Shown: one piece after another, positions 16,834 through 47,987 of the stretch | How the letters are laid out: each line of letters begins with the position of its first letter | How positions within the stretch are numbered: position 1 is the stretch's first letter | Source of the DNA: an uncultured Nitrospiraceae bacterium | Lineage (GTDB): Bacteria; Nitrospirota; Thermodesulfovibrionia; Thermodesulfovibrionales; SM23-35 | Assembly (NCBI GenBank): GCA_963727775.1 | Contig: CAVSHB010000002.1 | Span: 256,001 to 320,000 of the forward strand | Length of the DNA: 64,000 bases | Direction: 5' to 3' | Notes under the pieces: generated by a model | What the model was told of the DNA's origin: nothing | Seen by the model: only the letters and a program-made list of their open reading frames with translations | Database searches by the model: none | Position numbers and translations under genes: made by a program

Positions 16834-17399
16834 CTTGCTATATTGTAGTTAATGATGAGATCGATATATCTTCCAGGTAAGAATTGTTTATCCGGCAAAG
16901 GAAAGAAGGAGGAGATATTTATGAAAGGGTTACGGACGAAAAGAGTAAACATGATAAAGGAAGGGGCATTGATAGTAGCGATAGACATTGGTATGGCAAG
17001 TAACCATGGGTGCTGTGTGGCAGCAGACGGGAGGAGCACCAAGACATTCAAGTTTGATAATACAAGAGAAGGACTTGATAGATTGTGGAACATGGTACTT
17101 GCGAGCAAAACCAGATTTCAATGCAATGAGGTCATTATAGGATATGAGTCAACCGGACCTTATGGAGAGCCGTTGGTTCACTATCTCAAGCAGAAACCAG
17201 CAACGATCGTACAAGTAAACCCACTGCACACGAAGAGGATGAGAGAGATCAATGACAACTCTCCATTAAAGACTGATCGTAAGGATCCCCGGGTAATCGC
17301 GGATGTCATACGGATAGGGCACGCCTTAAGCGTCGTGGTCCCAGAAGGTGCTGCCGCCTATTTGAGAAGAATAAATAATGCACGGGAGAGACATATTAA

Positions 17400-19019
17400 C
17401 CCGAAAAATGCGTTTGCTATAGGCATACCTATAGAGTCAAGCCTATCAAGGCATTGGCTGATTTGTCGATATAAAAGCTAATACTGATGCTGTTTCTTGT
17501 TCCACCTCCTGAAAATTATGTTCTTTTTATCTAAATGCAGTGCAATTACCAAAACTGGGGGGAAAGTATTGTCCCACGCGGTTAAAGAGGTAGCGCAGTT
17601 TTGATCGTACTTTCTGCGTAAAGACAGAAATCCGCAATACAGGTTTCCTTCCATCCCATCCTAATTGGGCTGGAAGGACAAGATACTTGTACCGTAAGGT
17701 TTTCAAACGTTCTGTCTTTTCTTTTTGACCGAGTATCTGATGCCTGAACAGGACAAACAGATTGTAGATGAATACCCGAATAAGCATAGCCGCCTCCGTT
17801 GAGTAGAAATACTTCATCGAGAACCCGCCGAGTGCAAAATCCTCTTTCAGTTCCTTGATGGTATTCTCATCGTTCGCCCTATGCCTGCATTGCTTCCATA
17901 CCTCATATGTAGAATCATGTGAATTGGTTATCCATACGCTATAACGATAATGCCCTGTATCAAACTCATCTCCGAAAAGAGACAACTCTTTTCCCATCGC
18001 GTGCGGTCTCTTCTTGACATCCTGGCGCACTGCAATAAACCTCCTGTCGATTATCCACTCTACATGCTGGAAGAAGAACTCAGTGATCCATATCCCTTCT
18101 TCTACCTGTGCCCAGTTTTGTTGTGCGTAGATTATCCTCTGCAGCGGACGATATAGGCGAGCAGCTATGATATATACTAATTCTCTCTTCTCAAGCAGTT
18201 CGATGAACTCCCTAAGATAAAATCCACTGTCTGCAATAATGCCCTTGATATCGATATGACCGTTGATCCTCTGCCATGTGGATTCAAAAAATCCAATAAT
18301 GTTGTTCCATGACATCACGTTGCCGGGGCGGTTCCAAAGATTTATCACATACTTGTTTCTGTTAAGAAATGCCAGAAGCGGGCTGTGGCTACCACGGCCC
18401 TTCTTCTTCGGGTTATATCCCCTCTTGACTCCCTCCTGTTTTCCGTATCGCTCAAGGACTGTAGAATCGAACGTCAACCAGTCCTCTTTGAGCTCTTTCC
18501 AGGGGATCAATCTCTTCAAGTATCCCCATAATCCCTCCGACATCTCTTCCACTTCCTTCAGTTTTCTGATCTTCCTGAAAAGCCTGCCCAATGTCGTCGA
18601 GGCGATAGGAAGCCTCTTCACTGCAAAAAGATCGGTGAAAATCTCCTGCCAACCAAGATAAAGTAGATGAGAAAACCTGCTGCCTCCCGCATAGATCAGA
18701 AGGATGTATGCCAATACCTTGCTGTATATCCCCATTCCATTGGGTGAACTCTCATGGATCGGAATCACCTCTTGCAAAATTCCTCTCAATTTGATCTTTT
18801 CAAAAAATGCAGCCAATAAACTGAATCCCCCATATGCCGTCATCTTCTTCTCCGTAAATCCAATCCTTACTTTATTTATTTCGATCTTTGTGCTACATTT
18901 TGACTGCATATTTCTATTCTCCTTTCGTTTAGAGTTGATGGTCGGGTAAACCTATTGATTCTAATACGAAAGGAGAATTTCTTCGGGGATATTATTTTAG
19001 GTCAACTGCACTTTTTGGG
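17400..19019 (-). mobile_element. IS1380-family element nested in IS110
   Basis: Ends CCCGAAAAATGC / GCACTTTTTGGG; TTAA duplication (17396-17399, 19020-19023). Confidence 0.9.
17527..18909 (-). CDS. IS1380-family transposase (ISEcp1-like)
   Basis: TFDST, GYNPKKKG, ADSGF, RANDENTIKELK. Confidence 0.93.
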   Translation of the reverse strand: MQSKCSTKIEINKVRIGFTEKKMTAYGGFSLLAAFFEKIKLRGILQEVIPIHESSPNGMGIYSKVLAYILLIYAGGSRFSHLLYLGWQEIFTDLFAVKRLPIASTTLGRLFRKIRKLKEVEEMSEGLWGYLKRLIPWKELKEDWLTFDSTVLERYGKQEGVKRGYNPKKKGRGSHSPLLAFLNRNKYVINLWNRPGNVMSWNNIIGFFESTWQRINGHIDIKGIIADSGFYLREFIELLEKRELVYIIAARLYRPLQRIIYAQQNWAQVEEGIWITEFFFQHVEWIIDRRFIAVRQDVKKRPHAMGKELSLFGDEFDTGHYRYSVWITNSHDSTYEVWKQCRHRANDENTIKELKEDFALGGFSMKYFYSTEAAMLIRVFIYNLFVLFRHQILGQKEKTERLKTLRYKYLVLPAQLGWDGRKPVLRISVFTQKVRSKLRYLFNRVGQYFPPSFGNCTAFR

Positions 19020-19825
19020 TTAAAGAGCGGACCGCTCTTCTCAACCAATTACGGCAGTTTGTGTTTCTCATATTCCCAGAATTTGGCCGAATAATAAAGA
19101 CGATATTCTGCAAAACATCCTTACATATACTCAAGAAATATACGACACCGGCAAAGGTATGCAGCGTAAATATAGAGAAACTTGGAGGGGAAATGAGGAG
19201 ATGTAGCATGGGCAAATTCGGGGTAGAACATGCTACGGCGCTGATCAATTATGCAAAGACCACCATCGGTATTCAAGAAGGGTTGGACGGATTAGTTATG
19301 GATATACAGCACGCCCTCGTCCAGCTGGAGATGGTCGATAGTCTCATAGCGGAACTGGAGCACGAGATGGAGACAACCCTACAGCGCATACCCTACAGTC
19401 GCAAACTCCTGTCAATCAAAGGGCTCGGGATAGTAACGGTAGCAGGGCTTATTGGTGAGATAGGCGACTTTACAAAGTTTAAAACGCAGTCTGAGATAGC
19501 GAAGCTTGCCGGTCTTGACCTGTACGAAGTAAGCTCCGGGAAAAGACAAGGACAGAGGAGGATATCAAAGAGGGGCAGAAGCCTGTTACGGAAAATACTG
19601 TATTATGCCGCCATGCAGACAATCAGAAAGAACGGCATTATGCATGAGTACTACCAAAGACTGATAGGCCGGGGCATGAAAAGTATCATGGCGCTCGTTG
19701 CAGTATCCAGGAAACTATTGAGGATCATATTTGCAATTGTAAGGGATGACACTGAATTCATAATGAATCATGAAGCTCAGAGAAAGGAGGAGATGAGAAA
19801 GGCCGCTTAGAGTTATAATTCACGT

Positions 19826-19990
19826 AGGCGGGGAGATTATCGTTTTCTTCCTTTAAGGCGCAATGCGACCTTCGACTACAGAATACATAACTCCCCGTCG
19901 ACATTCTAACTCCAATTAAGCAAGGTAAAAGCGTTCAATACGACTTTCAAATTACAAGGGTTGGGTAGGATGTCACATACAAGATGGGGG
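19826..19990 (+). ncRNA. Putative IS110 bridge RNA 1
   Basis: Scaffold shared with element 2; loops carry TTCTTCCT and GACTACAG (target flanks), AGCAAG and ACAAG (element ends); boundaries approximate. Confidence 0.8.
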
Positions 19991-20088
19991 ATAACCGTCT
20001 ACGAGAATAGATATTTCTATCTAAGTCCACATATAAAAATATATCTTGACTGGAATAAACAAGGAAGGAAGCTTGCCTATGATTCTGC

Positions 20089-25877: not shown

Positions 25878-26033
25878 GAGATTTTAAAAACATCATTTTT
25901 CGCGACCTTCACCCCATACTAAGCATAGCCTTTTTGTTCCCTGCAGTAGTCCATGATGAATAATAATGAATATCTTCGAAACAATCAGTGATTACTTGAG
26001 TCTTTGAAGATGCGTCTTTCATTGTTCTTCTAG

Positions 26034-27736
26034 GAGTCTGTCGGACTTGAATTGCTGTTTTTGACAGCGGTTGGAATCCGAGAGAGTCGATTGTAGTTAT
26101 TTTTCATGATTTGATCGTCTGTCATCGGTTCTTTCCTGCCGGTGTTTTGTTGGATACATTATGCCATCGCCATTTTCAGGCGCCTACCTGGCTGTTCCTC
26201 AATGCATGCAGCCTTTTGATGTTCCATGCAATGCAGATCATATCCCACTCGCCATTGACTGCAGTAAAACCACGCAACAGGAATCGGTCAAATCCCATAG
26301 CTGCCTTGATTACCCCAAACGCCGGCTCCACAGTACTCTTGCGTATCGCATAAATTGCCTTACCGGCAACTGTCTTCAACCGATGTTTCATTCTTGTCAC
26401 TGCATCAGCATCAACCGGCAATGGAGGCGGTTCGACGAATCGCTCCCATAAAGGCTGATTATGACTCTGCCGATCTACTGCTATATATGGCTCTATTCCT
26501 TTGCTCTCACATTCTTGCACATTTGCTTCGCTGTAATACCCGCTGTCGGCTATTATAGTTTTTACTTTGCCAAGTTGTTCGGGCAGATATGTAAGCGCTT
26601 CAAGCGCTGGTTTCATCTGCTGTTTGTCATTGGATTGTTGTGTTACATGCGTTGCGACAATAAGCATTGTTTCTGTATCCACGGCTGCTTGAGCATTATA
26701 AGCCTGCTTGAATCCTCCACCCGATGCCGGCATTATGCGAGATTCTTCATCGGTCAGATTGACCTGATCTTTGTCAGTTGGCCCGGCTGCAGGCGGCTTG
26801 GGTCCTTTGCCTCGGGGTTTCTTGCCGCTCTGCTTTTGTTTGGCTACACGCTCTGCCTGTTTCTTTTCACTGTCGGCTTGTTCCATTGCATGCCGCTCTG
26901 CCGCACGGCGCTCTATCTCAGCTTTTGCTTCAGCTATCATTTTCAGCCGCTTCTCTCGCCGCTCCAGCTCTTCCGGGATGTTCATGCCGTCAGGAATGTC
27001 AGCTTTGTCAGCAGCCTCAGCTTTCTTCATCAGTTCCGCCACTTCCACTTTCAACTTATTCTCTATTTTGCATGCATGCCCGTAGCTCAACGCCTTGTGC
27101 TTTGAGGCATTGGCTTTCATTTTGGTCCCATCCAAGCTGACCGTGCCTAACTTCAATACCCCGGTTTCTGCTGCTATCATTAGTATCTGCACAAACAGTT
27201 CTTTCAGCTTAGGCAAAAACCGACGTCGAAAGGTTGCTATTGTGTCATGGTCAGGGTGACTGTTGGCTGCCACATACCGGAATGCTACAGAGTCGTACGT
27301 GCTACGCTCTAATTGCCTGCTCGAAAAGACTCCCGTCGCATATCCGTAAAATAATAATGCCACCAGCATCTCAGGGCTGTATGCCTCACTGCCTCGTCCT
27401 GCATAATCATTTTTCAACCGGTCAAGATTAAGCTGATCCACTATCTCTACGACAAATCTCGCCAAGTGACCCTCGGGCAACCATTCCTGCACCGACGGCG
27501 GAAATAAATATATCGTCTCTCTGTCACATTGTTTGAACATTATGCTGATCTCCTGTTGTTCATTCTTATGCCGCTTGTCTATTATGCCATAAGGAACGCC
27601 CATGCAGGTCTGTCGGACTTAGATAATTACAGGCCGAAAAGATTTCTGCTGCCCAGTTTGCAATAAAGGTTCTTAAGAGACTGCCGTGTCCTTCAAGAAG
27701 TAAACTTTTCAGAAATGTTGAAAGTCCGACAGACTC
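26034..27736 (-). mobile_element. IS1182-family element, copy 1
   Basis: IRs GAGTCTGTCGGACTT / AAGTCCGACAGACTC, flanked by CTAG; 1703 bp. Confidence 0.93.
26176..27540 (-). CDS. IS1182-family transposase
   Basis: PDHDTIATFR, LDGTK, ADSGY, RKSTVEPAFG; likely start MFKQ. Confidence 0.93.
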   Translation of the reverse strand: MFKQCDRETIYLFPPSVQEWLPEGHLARFVVEIVDQLNLDRLKNDYAGRGSEAYSPEMLVALLFYGYATGVFSSRQLERSTYDSVAFRYVAANSHPDHDTIATFRRRFLPKLKELFVQILMIAAETGVLKLGTVSLDGTKMKANASKHKALSYGHACKIENKLKVEVAELMKKAEAADKADIPDGMNIPEELERREKRLKMIAEAKAEIERRAAERHAMEQADSEKKQAERVAKQKQSGKKPRGKGPKPPAAGPTDKDQVNLTDEESRIMPASGGGFKQAYNAQAAVDTETMLIVATHVTQQSNDKQQMKPALEALTYLPEQLGKVKTIIADSGYYSEANVQECESKGIEPYIAVDRQSHNQPLWERFVEPPPLPVDADAVTRMKHRLKTVAGKAIYAIRKSTVEPAFGVIKAAMGFDRFLLRGFTAVNGEWDMICIAWNIKRLHALRNSQVGA

Positions 27737-27856
27737 CTAGTGTAAATGGCAGAGATTATTTATGGTCAATTTGTCCTATGTCAAGGGCTGACCCCATGGA
27801 TGTCCTTTTTGCGCCTTTACTCTTTCAGCACCTCTACAAACGGGCGTCATTAATCA

Positions 27857-42645: not shown

Positions 42646-42760
42646 GTCAACGCTTATTGAAGTCCGTCAGATTCGGGATCAACTTCTGTAACTAATGACG
42701 TACAAAGAACGATAGATATGCATATTTGAAGTAACCGAAAAATTATTTTACGCCCACTAG

Positions 42761-44463
42761 GAGTCTGTCGGACTTGAATTGCTGTTTTTGACAGCGGTTG
42801 GAATCCGAGAGAGTCGATTGTAGTTATTTTTCATGATTTGATCGTCTGTCATCGGTTCTTTCCTGCCGGTGTTTTGTTGGATACATTATGCCATCGCCAT
42901 TTTCAGGCGCCTACCTGGCTGTTCCTCAATGCATGCAGCCTTTTGATGTTCCATGCAATGCAGATCATATCCCACTCGCCATTGACTGCAGTAAAACCAC
43001 GCAACAGGAATCGGTCAAATCCCATAGCTGCCTTGATTACCCCAAACGCCGGCTCCACAGTACTCTTGCGTATCGCATAAATTGCCTTACCGGCAACTGT
43101 CTTCAACCGATGTTTCATTCTTGTCACTGCATCAGCATCAACCGGCAATGGAGGCGGTTCGACGAATCGCTCCCATAAAGGCTGATTATGACTCTGCCGA
43201 TCTACTGCTATATATGGCTCTATTCCTTTGCTCTCACATTCTTGCACATTTGCTTCGCTGTAATACCCGCTGTCGGCTATTATAGTTTTTACTTTGCCAA
43301 GTTGTTCGGGCAGATATGTAAGCGCTTCAAGCGCTGGTTTCATCTGCTGTTTGTCATTGGATTGTTGTGTTACATGCGTTGCGACAATAAGCATTGTTTC
43401 TGTATCCACGGCTGCTTGAGCATTATAAGCCTGCTTGAATCCTCCACCCGATGCCGGCATTATGCGAGATTCTTCATCGGTCAGATTGACCTGATCTTTG
43501 TCAGTTGGCCCGGCTGCAGGCGGCTTGGGTCCTTTGCCTCGGGGTTTCTTGCCGCTCTGCTTTTGTTTGGCTACACGCTCTGCCTGTTTCTTTTCACTGT
43601 CGGCTTGTTCCATTGCATGCCGCTCTGCCGCACGGCGCTCTATCTCAGCTTTTGCTTCAGCTATCATTTTCAGCCGCTTCTCTCGCCGCTCCAGCTCTTC
43701 CGGGATGTTCATGCCGTCAGGAATGTCAGCTTTGTCAGCAGCCTCAGCTTTCTTCATCAGTTCCGCCACTTCCACTTTCAACTTATTCTCTATTTTGCAT
43801 GCATGCCCGTAGCTCAACGCCTTGTGCTTTGAGGCATTGGCTTTCATTTTGGTCCCATCCAAGCTGACCGTGCCTAACTTCAATACCCCGGTTTCTGCTG
43901 CTATCATTAGTATCTGCACAAACAGTTCTTTCAGCTTAGGCAAAAACCGACGTCGAAAGGTTGCTATTGTGTCATGGTCAGGGTGACTGTTGGCTGCCAC
44001 ATACCGGAATGCTACAGAGTCGTACGTGCTACGCTCTAATTGCCTGCTCGAAAAGACTCCCGTCGCATATCCGTAAAATAATAATGCCACCAGCATCTCA
44101 GGGCTGTATGCCTCACTGCCTCGTCCTGCATAATCATTTTTCAACCGGTCAAGATTAAGCTGATCCACTATCTCTACGACAAATCTCGCCAAGTGACCCT
44201 CGGGCAACCATTCCTGCACCGACGGCGGAAATAAATATATCGTCTCTCTGTCACATTGTTTGAACATTATGCTGATCTCCTGTTGTTCATTCTTATGCCG
44301 CTTGTCTATTATGCCATAAGGAACGCCCATGCAGGTCTGTCGGACTTAGATAATTACAGGCCGAAAAGATTTCTGCTGCCCAGTTTGCAATAAAGGTTCT
44401 TAAGAGACTGCCGTGTCCTTCAAGAAGTAAACTTTTCAGAAATGTTGAAAGTCCGACAGACTC
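42761..44463 (-). mobile_element. IS1182-family element, copy 2
   Basis: Same IRs, CTAG flanks and 1703-bp length as copy 1; identical ORF translations. Confidence 0.93.
42903..44267 (-). CDS. IS1182-family transposase
   Basis: Identical protein to 26176..27540. Confidence 0.93.
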   Translation of the reverse strand: MFKQCDRETIYLFPPSVQEWLPEGHLARFVVEIVDQLNLDRLKNDYAGRGSEAYSPEMLVALLFYGYATGVFSSRQLERSTYDSVAFRYVAANSHPDHDTIATFRRRFLPKLKELFVQILMIAAETGVLKLGTVSLDGTKMKANASKHKALSYGHACKIENKLKVEVAELMKKAEAADKADIPDGMNIPEELERREKRLKMIAEAKAEIERRAAERHAMEQADSEKKQAERVAKQKQSGKKPRGKGPKPPAAGPTDKDQVNLTDEESRIMPASGGGFKQAYNAQAAVDTETMLIVATHVTQQSNDKQQMKPALEALTYLPEQLGKVKTIIADSGYYSEANVQECESKGIEPYIAVDRQSHNQPLWERFVEPPPLPVDADAVTRMKHRLKTVAGKAIYAIRKSTVEPAFGVIKAAMGFDRFLLRGFTAVNGEWDMICIAWNIKRLHALRNSQVGA

Positions 44464-44819
44464 CTAGAAAACAAAAACGTTTCTAACACCTTCTACTGGT
44501 TTATTATTGTCAAGAACTTTTTACGGAGTAACTCCCCTCTGATAGAGACAAGCCACTACTAAGGTTTCCTGGCTTCAATGGTTTCTGCTTCGTTCTTTGC
44601 CCCCAGATCCCTTGTCTCATTACGTAATCCATTCTGCATGTTTGAGAGCCAATTCTGAAAAAGCGGCTTCGTAGAAAGCTATAGGATCGATTATCTCAGC
44701 ATGACCCATATTACGGTATCCCCTGGATTCGGCGTTTCTCTTTTTTATGCCTCCTCTTGGCTCCTTTCACTTAACCTTATATCAACCTTCTCACTTCCAT
44801 CTCCATTAGGAGGAAGTCA

Positions 44820-44982
44820 CTTTAGTCTTTGGTGTAGCACCTTGCCTGACACTGGTAATTCGAGGGTCTCAACAGAGCCCTGACCTTGCTTAATCGAGAC
44901 TAAGGTGCAAGCGGGGAGTTACAAGCTCCGCATGAAGGTCGGCTCAGCCGCCTTAGGTATCAGGTCGGTAATCTCCCCGCTT
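44820..44982 (-). ncRNA. Putative IS110 bridge RNA 2
   Basis: Scaffold GCGGGGAGATTA...AAGGCG...GACCTTC...TAACTCCCCG...TTAAGCAAGGT; guide TGCGGAG equals the element flank. Confidence 0.78.
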
Positions 44983-45000
44983 ACACGCCAATACTATAAG

Positions 45001-46263
45001 TTATGCAGCCTCCTGGTATTGAAGTGAGACTATAGAGAAATCTTTTTTGTATACACTTTGGTCACGCACAACAGCAAATATGATTCCAAGAAGTTTTCTT
45101 GCTACGGCGATCAGCGCCTTGGTCTTAGGCATGCCCCGCTCAAGGTACTTTTGATATTGATCGTGCATTATTCCACCTCTGCGGACTGTGTTGAGCGAGG
45201 CAAAGTACAAAAGTTTACGCAGCAGGTGACGGCCTCGCTTAGATATGCGTCGCTTCCCCTTGTATTGGCCAGAACTGATCTCATAAAGGTCCAGCCCTGC
45301 GAGCTTTAGGATCTCGGAGAGGGTTTGAAACTTCCGAAAATCACCCACTTCACCGATAAGACCGGCAGTGGTAACCTCTTTAATCCCCTTTATCGAGAGG
45401 ATCGAGCCACTGTAGGGAATCTGCTTCAGATAATACCCCATTTCCTTTTCCAGATCCCCGGTAAAGGACTCAGCAGCGTCCATGGCGATAAGAAGTTCTC
45501 TTATCTCACGTATAATGCTCGTCATGCCTTCGGTTACACCTATAGAAGCTGTTGCAGCCTCATAGAGGGCCTTGGCGCGATCTTCCTTCAGCTTTCCGCG
45601 GCTGACCTTATTGATCGTTGCACTCAAATTATCAAGACCGTACGCGACAATATCCTTGGGTGCTGGGCACTGCGCAAGGAGATATCGGGCAGTCAACGTC
45701 TTTACATCCTTCATTACCTGCAAAAACTCAGGAAAGATAATCGCAAGCAAGCTCTGGAGCTGGTTCACCAGGGATACATAACGCTCGTTGCTCCTTTCCC
45801 TGGCCTGAGTGAGCCTCCTGAGTTTGGCCGCTGGACCTTCCGGGATCACTACAGTCAGGGCGTGGCCAAGTGCCATAATATCAGCGATAACCTTTGGGTC
45901 TTTCTGGTCGGTCTTGTTCGGCGAATTACCCTGAAGCTCCTTAAGCCTCTTAGTGTGCATAGGGCTTACTTGTACCATGTGTACGCCTCTCGCACGCATG
46001 AAATGAACAAGAGGTTCGGCATACGGCCCGGTGGACTCGTATCCAAAAACAATATCTTCGATGTTATGGAGCTTTTTGGCATAAGATACACGATCCCAGA
46101 ACTCTTGGAAACCCCTGCCGTTGTTCCAGAAGGCAAAGGGCTTCACATCGCTTCCGTCCGGACAGCGCCAGTATCCAAAATGTCTATCCTTTCCCATATC
46201 AGCTGTCACAATCATCGTTCTACCATTGACTACTTTAAACTTTTTTGTTTTACTCTTCTTCAT
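45001..46263 (-). CDS. IS110 recombinase, intact
   Basis: TADMG, YESTG, KTDQKD, SSG. Confidence 0.95.
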   Translation of the reverse strand: MKKSKTKKFKVVNGRTMIVTADMGKDRHFGYWRCPDGSDVKPFAFWNNGRGFQEFWDRVSYAKKLHNIEDIVFGYESTGPYAEPLVHFMRARGVHMVQVSPMHTKRLKELQGNSPNKTDQKDPKVIADIMALGHALTVVIPEGPAAKLRRLTQARERSNERYVSLVNQLQSLLAIIFPEFLQVMKDVKTLTARYLLAQCPAPKDIVAYGLDNLSATINKVSRGKLKEDRAKALYEAATASIGVTEGMTSIIREIRELLIAMDAAESFTGDLEKEMGYYLKQIPYSGSILSIKGIKEVTTAGLIGEVGDFRKFQTLSEILKLAGLDLYEISSGQYKGKRRISKRGRHLLRKLLYFASLNTVRRGGIMHDQYQKYLERGMPKTKALIAVARKLLGIIFAVVRDQSVYKKDFSIVSLQYQEAA

Positions 46264-46504
46264 GGCTATACTCCTTTCTTTGGTTTGGATTTAACCAACT
46301 CGCACATTGGTCTGAATCAAGAAAGAGTATAGCCTTCTTTAACAAGGCCTAACTCTACAACAATATAGCAAGCTCCGCAGCCGAAATGTATTGAAATTAT
46401 TGCTGTATACTGGTACAAATATTGAGATCTTAAAAGAACAGTTTTTATAAAAAGGTTTCAGGTGTTGTTTGTCTTACGGAATTGGGGTAAAGATGAGTAG
46501 CATA

Positions 46505-46552: not shown

Positions 46553-46891
46553 ACGGTTATACTATTTAAAACGACAAAGCTCGAAAGAGAGTGCAATAAT
46601 AAAAATCTTATGTTGAAAAGATTTGGTGCACTGAGATCAAAATTTTTGAAAAGAAGACTAAATGAACTGCAAGCGGCTGCTTCACTTGATGTTTTACGAT
46701 TTCTACCTCAGGCGCGGTCTCACGAACTGAAGGGAAATAGAAAAGGACAGCTCTCTGTCGATCTTGACCATCCGTACCGGTTGATTTTCGAGCCTGCAAA
46801 TAATCCGGTCGCTAAAAAGCCGGACGGTGGACTTGACTAGAATAAAGTAACAAGTGTGAGGATTATTGGCGTGGAGGACACACATGAGTAA
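46553..46891 (+). pseudogene. higB: HigB-like toxin with ACG at the expected start and an internal TAG
   Basis: (T)VILFKTTKLEREC...HELKGNRKGQLSVDLDHPYRLIF...GGLD*NKVTSVRIIGVEDTHE. Confidence 0.8.
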
Positions 46892-47987
46892 AGAAATAAA
46901 AAGTGAATTTGTACCTGATTATGCGGTGCCTCCGGGAGAGACGCTTCTTGAGACGTTGGAGACAATAGGCATGTCCCAGGCCGAGCTTGCAGAACGCACC
47001 GGTAGGCCCAAGAAGACAATTAATGAAATCGTCAAGGGGAAGGCTGCGATTACTCCTGAAACCGCCTTGCAATTGGAAAGGGTACTCGGAGTGCCCGCAA
47101 GCTTTTGGAATAATCTGGAACGTAATTATCAGGAAACCCTTGCGCGCATTAACGAGCAAAAGAGGCTGCAAAAACAAATTAACTGGCTTGAGAAATTTCC
47201 CATTGCTTTATTTGTCAGGAATGGATGGGTTAAGGGTTATAAAGACAAAATTCAGCAACTTAAGGCAGTCCTGAATTTTTTTGGTGTAGCTTCTCCTGGG
47301 CAATGGACACTGAGATGGCTTGACGCTCAGGTTTCATATCGAAAATCAGCAGTATTCACGAGTGATCCTTATGCCGTGGCCCCATGGCTGCGGATAGGAG
47401 AGCTCATTGCTCAAAAGACTGAATGCAGGCCCTATGCTGCGGCCAAGTTCAGAAACGCGCTCTCTGAAATCAGGAAACTTACAACACAGCCTCCCGAGGT
47501 TTTTCAGCCTGAAATCATTCGCCTTTGCGCCGGATGCGGGGTGGCTGTTGTTTTTGTTCCTGAACTTCCGAAAATAAGGGCATGTGGCGCAACATGGTGG
47601 CTGAATCCCAGCAAGGCGGTGATCCAATTGAGCCTGCGCTATAAAAGCGACGACCAGTTGTGGTTCAGCTTTTTCCATGAAGCGGGACATATACTTATCC
47701 ACGGCAAGAAAGATGTTTTTATTGAGGGTAATAATCAAGGCTCTGATAAGGAAGACGAAGCTGATAGATTTGCTTCTGATATTTTGATTCCACCCAGGAA
47801 ATACAGTCAATTTGTGCACTCAGGAAGATGCAGTAAAGAAGCCATCAAGGATTTTGCCTCTGAACTCAGCATTGCTCCAGGCATTGTTGTGGGACGACTT
47901 CAGCATTTCGGTAAAATACCATATAGCCATTGCAATGATCTGAAACGAAGATTTGAGTGGCAGAATGCTGCGGCAAAAATTAGATAA
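46884..47987 (+). CDS. higA: HigA-type HTH antitoxin fused to ImmA/IrrE-like metallopeptidase
   Basis: PPGETL...MSQAELA...ITPETA...FW; FFHEAGH; EDEADRFA. Confidence 0.9.
   Translation: MSKEIKSEFVPDYAVPPGETLLETLETIGMSQAELAERTGRPKKTINEIVKGKAAITPETALQLERVLGVPASFWNNLERNYQETLARINEQKRLQKQINWLEKFPIALFVRNGWVKGYKDKIQQLKAVLNFFGVASPGQWTLRWLDAQVSYRKSAVFTSDPYAVAPWLRIGELIAQKTECRPYAAAKFRNALSEIRKLTTQPPEVFQPEIIRLCAGCGVAVVFVPELPKIRACGATWWLNPSKAVIQLSLRYKSDDQLWFSFFHEAGHILIHGKKDVFIEGNNQGSDKEDEADRFASDILIPPRKYSQFVHSGRCSKEAIKDFASELSIAPGIVVGRLQHFGKIPYSHCNDLKRRFEWQNAAAKIR

Follow-up and report, generated by a model that had tools for sequence, protein, structure and literature searches.

Results

The locus and its element

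In this work we have analysed a stretch of 64,000 nucleotides from an uncultured Nitrospiraceae bacterium (contig CAVSHB010000002.1; the whole stretch is called the window here), in which a complete insertion sequence (IS) of the IS110 family lies on the minus strand at 44496..46372. The element, called E2, is 1877 bp long and consists of a left end, a recombinase gene, a stretch of 161 nt immediately 3' of the recombinase stop codon that is predicted to encode a bridge (seek) RNA, and a right-end spacer (Table 1). A preliminary description of the window, made from its letters, had proposed an element at 44488-46380 with its RNA 3' of the open reading frame (ORF) 45001..46263 (minus strand). 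The RNA lies where it was placed, and the proposed limits are those of the element (in plus-strand coordinates) together with 8-9 nt of target on each side, not those of the element itself. The ends of E2 are known to the base because the genome that contains the window (3.43 Mb in four contigs), searched for further copies, holds four near-identical ones with that of the window included: their common span is exactly 44496..46372, and the other three are each 1-2 single-nucleotide polymorphisms (SNPs) from the window copy. The element begins with CTTGCTATATTG and ends with AATAAACCAG.

Table 1. Coordinates of E2, its parts, its copies and the related element 1 (window positions unless a contig is named)
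Feature	Position	Strand	Details
E2, whole element	44496..46372	-	left end from CTTGCTATATT... to right end ...AATAAACCAG; fixed by four copies
Left end and 5' untranslated region	46264..46372	-	-10-like TATATT; inverted repeat around the Shine-Dalgarno region
Recombinase gene, 420 aa	45001..46263	-	PF01548 1.4e-22, PF02371 3.8e-20, NF033542
Bridge/seek RNA gene	~44826..44986	-	predicted ends; target-binding then donor-binding domain; from fold, consensus structure and covariance model
Right-target guide	44956..44966	-	GACCTGATA + CC (core side); complementary to the element-sense right flank
Left-target guide	44922..44933	-	ATGCGG, AG core, CTTG; from register and match rates across homologues
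Donor guide AAGCAAG	44885..44891	-	reverse complement of the left-end start CTTGCTT
Donor guide TTACCAG + T	44851..44858	-	matches the right-end terminus AAACCAG; T = first right-flank base in 4/4 copies
Right-end spacer	44524..44825	-	~260 nt of it (~44530-44790) absent from the two closest relatives
Right-end terminus	44496..44513	-	-35-like TTGACA (44513..44508), then 12 nt to the tip
Left target half and core, window copy	46373..46380	-	cTGCGG-AG
Right target half, window copy	44487..44495	-	TAGAAGGTG; 5/7 read positions, mismatches at 3 and 4 from the core
Copy a (window)			left flank ...cTGCGGAG, right flank TAGAAGGTGttag (element orientation)
Copy b	C4:233685-235561		left flank ...ATGCGGAG, right flank TAGAAGGTGgact (element orientation)
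Copy c	C1:783812-785688		left flank ...ATGCGGAG, right flank TAGAAGGTGtatt (element orientation)
Copy d	G000:C1:345358-347234		left flank ...ATGTGGAG, right flank TATCAGGTGgacc (element orientation)
Element 1 (E1)	16834..20063	+	RNA scaffold ~19810-19997; recombinase gene split

The product of the recombinase gene matches the Pfam domains DEDD_Tnp_IS110 and Transposase_20 (Table 1) and scores 188.7 bits, against a cut-off of 140, with the NCBIfam model NF033542 ('IS110 family RNA-guided transposase'). Residues D22, E76, D119, D122 and S330/S331-G332 are invariant in 22/22 aligned sequences; the DEDD residues align with the motifs of IS621, and the protein thus has both the N-terminal RuvC-like DEDD domain and the C-terminal Ser-Gly motif of the family. 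The only solved relatives in the PDB are IS621 (8wt6, E=1e-7) and ISCro4 (E=0.0019), matches so marginal that the E2 protein stands on a branch far from the bridge recombinases of known structure. Among plasmid-borne named relatives the top match has 33% identity and carries only the annotation 'IS110 family transposase'.

Each of the four copies is preceded by ...GGAG and followed by TA..AGGTG, and AG is all that its left flank has in common with its right end; this dinucleotide (CT on the opposite strand) is therefore the core, closing both the left flank and the right end, and no target duplication is made. Beyond 9-18 nt the flanks of the copies are unrelated on at least one side. A paralogue of the copy-d site, at G000:C1:489987, is unoccupied and reads without interruption ...ATGTAGAG TATCAGATGGA..., that is, ...cataaATGTAGAG-TATCAGATGGAag; together with the four copies it points to site-specific insertion at a 2-nt core. 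In the rest of the genome no site lies within one mismatch of either 16-nt joined target, the C1:489987 paralogue being the only one found. No empty site was seen in 30 relatives either, where the sequences that match the left flank of copy d invariably end ~40 nt short of the insertion point because this flank is the end of another repeated sequence.

That repeat forms the left flanks of copies d (G000:C1:345058-345357) and c (C1:785689-785988) and is present in the genomes of relatives too, its copies stopping ~40 nt before the E2 insertion point. In copies c and d the last 20 nt ahead of the insertion form a hairpin, CTCCGC-gtaaat-GCGGAG, so that the left target half of E2 is the 3' arm of this hairpin.

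A predicted two-domain RNA conserved downstream of the recombinase gene

The 161-nt RNA has a predicted fold of two stem-loops, both of which contain an internal loop (-63.8 kcal/mol, z = -3.81), and its scaffold follows the stop codon in essentially all the homologues fetched. We aligned 63 distinct RNA sequences from 80 genome-contig loci with those of E1 and E2 (mean column identity 65%); the RNAalifold consensus over these 65 sequences contains 36 pairs, 30 of which show compensatory double changes. A covariance model built from the homologue alignment scores the four E2 RNAs at 169 bits each and the E1 RNA at 140 bits, in agreement with the proposal that both elements have a common scaffold, and it detected no orphan RNA in the genome beyond these five. 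No Rfam family reaches its gathering score in the window, and at E up to 10 the region 44480-45010 gives chance matches to eukaryotic families only. As in other IS110-family elements, one loop of the structured RNA faces both halves of the target and the other faces both ends of the element.

Target guides covary with the flanks

In the first loop the 5' side reads GACCTGATA-CC and the 3' side ATGCGG-AG, the latter corresponding to the left flank and the core. The preliminary description had been led to this loop by the plus-strand heptamer CTCCGCA, which does occur both in the RNA gene (44926-44932) and in the flank (46373-46379). Read in RNA sense, ATGCGGAG faces the flank CTGCGGAG with 7/8 matches, and the other guide, ACCTGATAC, faces the plus-strand flank ACCTTCTAC at 44488-44496 with 7/9, as had been claimed; the last C of ACCTTCTAC is already the first base of E2. 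When the E2 guides ATGCGGAG and GACCTGATA are set against the flanks of all the copies, the left half agrees in three copies at all the read positions (5/5) and at the AG core, and in the fourth copy at 4/5; the right flank is TAGAAGGTG in three copies, which score 5/7, and TATCAGGTG in copy d, which scores 7/7.

It had also been proposed that the guides change in step with the flanks. Guides and flanks were taken by fixed patterns from two sets of homologous loci, and cognate pairings were compared with 5000 permuted ones. Set 1 comprises 85 loci (80 genome-contig loci, E1 and the four E2 copies); the pattern found the RNA in 80 of them (the exceptions being L024, L041, L055, L071 and L072) and both flanks in 62, giving 43 distinct guide pairs. 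Set 2 comprises 80 metagenome-contig loci, 67 with an RNA by pattern and 13 without. The left guide matches its own flank at a mean of 6.28/8 positions in set 1 (4.13 when permuted) and 6.53 in set 2 (4.57; 53 guide sets), the right guide at 6.12/8 (4.36) and 6.37 (4.52; 49 guide sets), and in each of the four comparisons 0/5000 permutations reached the observed value, although the permutations treat related elements as independent and these figures are not exact probabilities. The covariation of guides and flanks is thus a large effect, replicated in two homologue sets.

What part of the target does the family read? Over 115 unique right-hand guide/target pairs, positions 1-7 from the core match in 75-91% and positions 8-9 in 32-39%; over 127 left-hand pairs the rates are 78-94% at positions 1-5, 11% at position 6 and 99% at the core. 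These rates define a read target of 5 + 2 + 7 bp, and the single left-hand mismatch of E2 (A versus C) therefore falls at a position that the family does not read. Among the mismatches rU:dG (26/76) and rG:dT (24/82) lead, followed by rC:dA and rA:dC with 17 each, a wobble-led spectrum that fits base pairing; a transition bias fits it too. Immediately 5' of the five left-target bases that are read, the guide agrees with the flank in 11% of the 127 pairs, which is less than the 25% expected at random.

Donor guides, candidate handshake bases and a possible promoter at the joined ends

The second loop of the RNA carries two guides that correspond to the ends of the element (Table 1). As the preliminary description had noticed, the donor loop follows the element end: in E1 a TTACAAG loop accompanies the end AAACAAG, in E2 a TTACCAG loop the end AAACCAG. 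Such covariation recurs independently in other homologues, in L069 (GTACTAG with the end AAACTAG) and in L067, whose guide AGCACG faces the left end CGTGCT. In L033 the donor guide has changed and the end has not, and in L038 one guide base is unmatched.

Two further matches concern the junctions of the inserted product. The CTTG that follows the left-target guide and core equals the first four bases of the E2 left end, and the nucleotide that follows the donor guide is identical to the first flank nucleotide in 41/47 combinations (permuted mean 29; 0/10000 permutations reached 41) and in 45/59 of set 2.

At the other extreme of the element the -10-like TATATT (46367..46362) lies 5 nt from the left tip, so that abutted ends would give TTGACA-17 nt-TATATT. 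Of 162 elements examined, both ends were found in 133; all 133 have the 17-nt spacing (the pattern allowed 16 or 17), 125 have TTGACA or TTGACT and 114 have TATATT.

A right half-site that departs from the guide

Three of the four copies lie at one right half-site, TAGAAGGT, and the guide specifies TATCAGGT. The target proposed for an insertion assay in the preliminary description is this 5/7 half-site; the guide-perfect site is that occupied by copy d, at G000:C1:345358-347234. A score of 5/7 or less on the right half is found in 28/115 family pairs, so E2 is within the range of its family. The relative L101 has the same guide as E2 and the site GATCAGGTG; the E2 guide has thus not changed recently.

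There are three candidate explanations for this triple recurrence. One is a stable tandem rG:dA / rA:dG mismatch. In nucleic-acid thermodynamics, tandem G:A/A:G mismatches are stable. As a rule for the whole family such a tolerance was rejected, because 0/5 tandem mismatches in the relatives are of that type. A second candidate is the exchange of flanks by recombination between copies. The third is a tolerated or half-matched insertion, of a kind reported in the available parts of two 2026 preprints.

Left end and right-end spacer

The left end of E2 measures 109 nt and contains no RNA of the type that lies downstream of the gene. Within it an inverted repeat, GGCTATAC...GTATAGCC (46267-46325, minus strand), spans ~60 nt including the Shine-Dalgarno sequence and ends directly before the start codon. 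It is invariant in 25 homologues, which were selected by a pattern requiring the motif and are hence uninformative on covariation. In the mRNA the repeat could mask the ribosome site; alternatively, it could be bound by a protein.

Between the RNA and the right end there are ~300 nt, as had been stated. The distance between the beginning of the guide region and the right end is 471 nt in E2, against 159-364 nt in the relatives of set 1 and 166-422 nt (mode ~204) in those of set 2. The two relatives that lack most of the spacer, L098 and L101, are 87% identical to E2 in protein; L099 (84%) has a diverged form of it. One relative contig in a DNA run covers 44563-44959 at ~92% identity, so that part of the spacer exists elsewhere, and apart from the terminal ~27 nt nothing similar was found in the rest of the genome or in the 80 loci of set 1. 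As coding sequence the spacer offers ORFs of 29 and 60 aa without a Pfam match; the 29-aa frame is lost in L099, and by our own count the substitutions in the relative contig fall about evenly over its second and third codon positions. As structured RNA it has a fold z of -0.92 and no Rfam match. Both candidates were rejected, and we read the ~260-nt segment as a lineage-specific spacer with no function detected.

Element 1 and other neighbours

The window contains a second member of the family, E1, of which the genome has one copy. Its left guide agrees with its flank at 8/8 positions (both GACTACAG), and its right guide TTTTCTTC-CT faces CTTCCTTC-CT (8/10, in our own reading of the register). 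Its recombinase gene is in two pieces, each 46-48% identical to the E2 protein, with an IS1380-family element between them (~17392-19033; ORF 17527..18909 on the minus strand, NF033539 201.8 bits); the RNA gene of E1 is untouched by this insertion. The preliminary description had presented E1 and E2 as a natural reprogramming pair. Their guides and donors do covary with sites and ends; with proteins only 46-48% identical and the E1 gene split, however, they are not freshly diverged, but two co-resident members of a large family.

An IS1182-family element of 1711 bp, with a 475-aa DDE transposase, occupies 42757-44467 and ~26030-27740, and 11 identical right ends of it are found in the genome. 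One of the copies stops 27-28 nt short of E2's right end, and only this much of the original right flank of E2 therefore remains in the window. On the other side, ~240 nt from the left end, what looks like a toxin-antitoxin-like pair is formed by an ORF for a HigB-like RelE-type toxin (46610-46840, plus strand; PF05015) and one combining HTH_3 and Peptidase_M78 (IrrE-like) domains (46866-47987, plus strand). When the genome itself was searched by tblastn with the E2 recombinase, 22 matches were obtained, among them at least two further IS110-family groups with several copies each (32% and 25% identity). The E2/E1 covariance model detected no RNA for these groups, and several distinct types of bridge RNA probably coexist in this genome.

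Discussion

Proposed mechanism

Given the anatomy of E2, the ends of its copies, the complementarity of its guides to flanks and ends, and the covariation of these across homologues, we propose with high confidence that E2 is an autonomous IS110-family element in which a bridge (seek) RNA, encoded immediately after the recombinase gene, guides the DEDD/Ser recombinase. E2 follows the mechanism published for bridge RNAs (PMC11208160) and seekRNAs (PMC11187229), as far as the available parts of these papers describe it, in a lineage without earlier study of such a system. The first loop of the RNA would pair with both strands of a 14-bp target (5 nt on the left, the 2-nt core AG/CT and 7 nt on the right), and the second with the element's two ends once these are joined (...TTACCAG / CTTGCTT...). 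E2 would then be inserted by recombination at the core, without target duplication. The one base after the donor guide and the 3-4 bases after the left-target guide, which match the product junctions, may act like the handshake guides of IS621 (PMC11208158, in the portion available). When the ends are abutted, the TTGACA-17-TATATT promoter would read into the recombinase gene, and a junction promoter has indeed been reported for ISEc11 and ISEc21 (PMC11187229, section 12, as available). Expression of the RNA, its binding by the protein, circle formation and catalysis may be expected by analogy with IS621, ISEc11 and ISEc21. The element is probably still mobile.

Several observations weigh against this proposal or its present-day operation. 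The preliminary description called the recombinase intact; its frame is open over all 420 aa, but codon 147 of the window copy has A at window position 45825 where the other three copies have G, and the resulting K147 is private to this copy, with E in the other three and in 21/21 aligned homologues. Copy d carries G209S at a position at least 90% conserved, and the consensus protein is encoded by 2/4 copies. Genes with E147 lie, for example, at C4:233794-235053 and C1:784320-785579. The expression and the ends of the RNA are predicted from its relatives and its fold. The extraction patterns lost loci (5/85 and 13/80 without an RNA), and the permutations share the non-independence mentioned above. 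The right half-site common to three copies departs from the guide at two central positions, 3 and 4, which match in 87% and 85% of the family pairs. The flanks of copy c do not look as if they came from one ancestral locus, the left being paralogous to that of copy d and the right not, and recombination between copies may have given some of them their present flanks. Finally, the fragmentary assembled contigs of four DNA runs contain no circle joint or empty-site joint of the locus, although assembled contigs cannot reveal rare forms such as these.

Position between IS110 and IS1111

How does E2 relate to the systems already described? The comparisons that follow go by the available portions of the papers cited. 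Like IS621 (PMC11208160, PMC11208158), E2 has a DEDD and Ser recombinase, one RNA with the target loop before the donor loop, a 2-nt CT core, a target of ~14 bp, handshake bases that match the product and an ATA/TAT pattern by the donor. The two differ in that their proteins have marginal similarity and different lengths (420 versus 328 aa), that the RNA gene of E2 is 3' of the recombinase gene whereas that of IS621 is in the left end, and that the CT core of E2 is on the strand opposite the gene, which reverses the order of top- and bottom-strand guides relative to the gene. In the IS1111-family elements ISEc11, ISPa11 and ISKpn4 (PMC11187229), the non-coding region and guide RNA are downstream of tnp as in E2, the top-strand match is 5' of the bottom-strand match, a promoter would be formed at the circle junction and, as in the E2 family, each relative has its own specific target; in contrast to these elements E2 has no long subterminal inverted repeats, and its recombinase is ~80 aa longer than their 330-350 aa. 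The pair ISEc21 and ISMch6 (PMC11187229, section 12) resembles E1 and E2 in having a common RNA fold with guides that differ in step with the sites; the former pair are 72% identical in protein and have the RNA upstream, whereas E1 and E2 are 46-48% identical, have it downstream and differ at one donor position.

These features raise the possibility, which we regard as open to consideration but rather doubtful, that E2 is a proper member of the IS1111 subgroup and not an IS110-group element with a displaced RNA. Its RNA is in the right end, not upstream in the left end as in the IS621-like IS110 subgroup, and its top-strand-pairing guide is 5' of the bottom-strand one, as described for IS1111 seekRNAs (PMC11187229, section 9; PMC11208160). 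Against this, IS1111 elements have subterminal inverted repeats of 7-17 bp and transposases of 330-350 aa. The best such repeat of E2 is 6 bp (TATTGT/ACAATA), equalled or exceeded in 186/500 shuffles and so within chance, in line with the earlier remark that none is obvious; its 420-aa recombinase falls in the range of the IS110 subgroup, 395-455 aa (PMC11187229, section 6), and its ends carry the short ATA...TAT pattern of the IS110 group (PMC11208160). A downstream non-coding region is also mentioned for some IS110-type elements (PMC11187229, section 6). We leave E2 between the two subgroups, its position being judged from these features.

Alternative explanations

It is unlikely, in our view, that E2 is now immobile and that its copies were spread by segmental duplication or recombination between copies and not by recent RNA-guided transposition. 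The chimeric look of the copy c flanks, the substitutions of conserved residues in two copies (E147K and G209S) and the missing circles in the assembled contigs would fit such a history; segmental duplication, however, would not give flanks unrelated beyond 9-18 nt on at least one side, and the near-identity of the copies (no more than 2 SNPs over the 1877 bp), two of which encode the consensus protein, also speaks against it.

A second alternative concerns the right boundary: the 9 nt after ...AACCAG (TAGAAGGTG or TATCAGGTG) might belong to a longer element, in which case what the right guide matches would be the end of the element itself. The 9-mer is identical in three copies, and copies a and c are alike even further on (TAGAAGGTGT(A)TTAGAAA). 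Nevertheless, in all the multi-copy relatives the guide match begins directly after CCAG, and similarity between the copies is lost after 7-9 nt (for instance the seven copies L058-L063 and L090), copy d differs at 2/9 nt there and at only 2/1877 within the element, and the unoccupied paralogue has TATCAGATGGA straight after ...GTAGAG, all of which makes this explanation very improbable. Finally, the idea that the 3' structure is just an untranslated-region or terminator element, with the protein choosing the site and the guide-like matches incidental, has for it that the expression of the RNA is predicted and that the highly conserved scaffold may owe part of its 'structure' to sequence conservation, and can practically be dismissed in view of variable loop positions that covary with the flanks in two independent sets (0/5000 each) and with the element ends, compensatory changes in 30/36 stem pairs and a mismatch spectrum led by wobbles.

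Meaning for the family and its use

Conceptually an RNA-guided E2 brings nothing new, since targeting by RNA, recognition of the donor, natural retargeting and promoters at the junction have all been published already; in the available text, natural retargeting is described for ISEc21/ISMch6 (PMC11187229, section 12) and family-wide covariation in PMC11208160. Bridge and seek RNA recombinases are under development as programmable tools for DNA insertion. To these the E2 locus adds exact ends and a 161-nt RNA in which four guides and both handshake extensions are assigned, and its family adds a per-position map of the read target (5 + 2 + 7) and more than 90 natural guide/target sets from relatives. 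E2 and its relatives are useful raw material for the choice of orthologues, with a practical interest that is moderate and a conceptual one that is low.

None of the elements treated in the available portions of PMC11208160, PMC11187229 and PMC11208158 turned out to belong to the clade of E2, although a named IS of the clade may already stand in the supplements of PMC11208160 or PMC11187229. A literature search on bridge RNA or IS110 together with Nitrospirota, Desulfobacterota or Planctomycetota gave no mention of either among the papers listed. As a more speculative reading, which we consider improbable as a whole but worth stating, the clade would be a deep branch with recombinases of ~420 aa and a 3' RNA, common in metagenome genomes of Nitrospirota, Desulfobacterota and Planctomycetota, E2 would be active now, and its off-guide half-site would reflect a defined mismatch tolerance or a second mode of recognition. 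If such a tolerance or second mode exists, the natural target range of these elements would be wider than the complement of their guides suggests.

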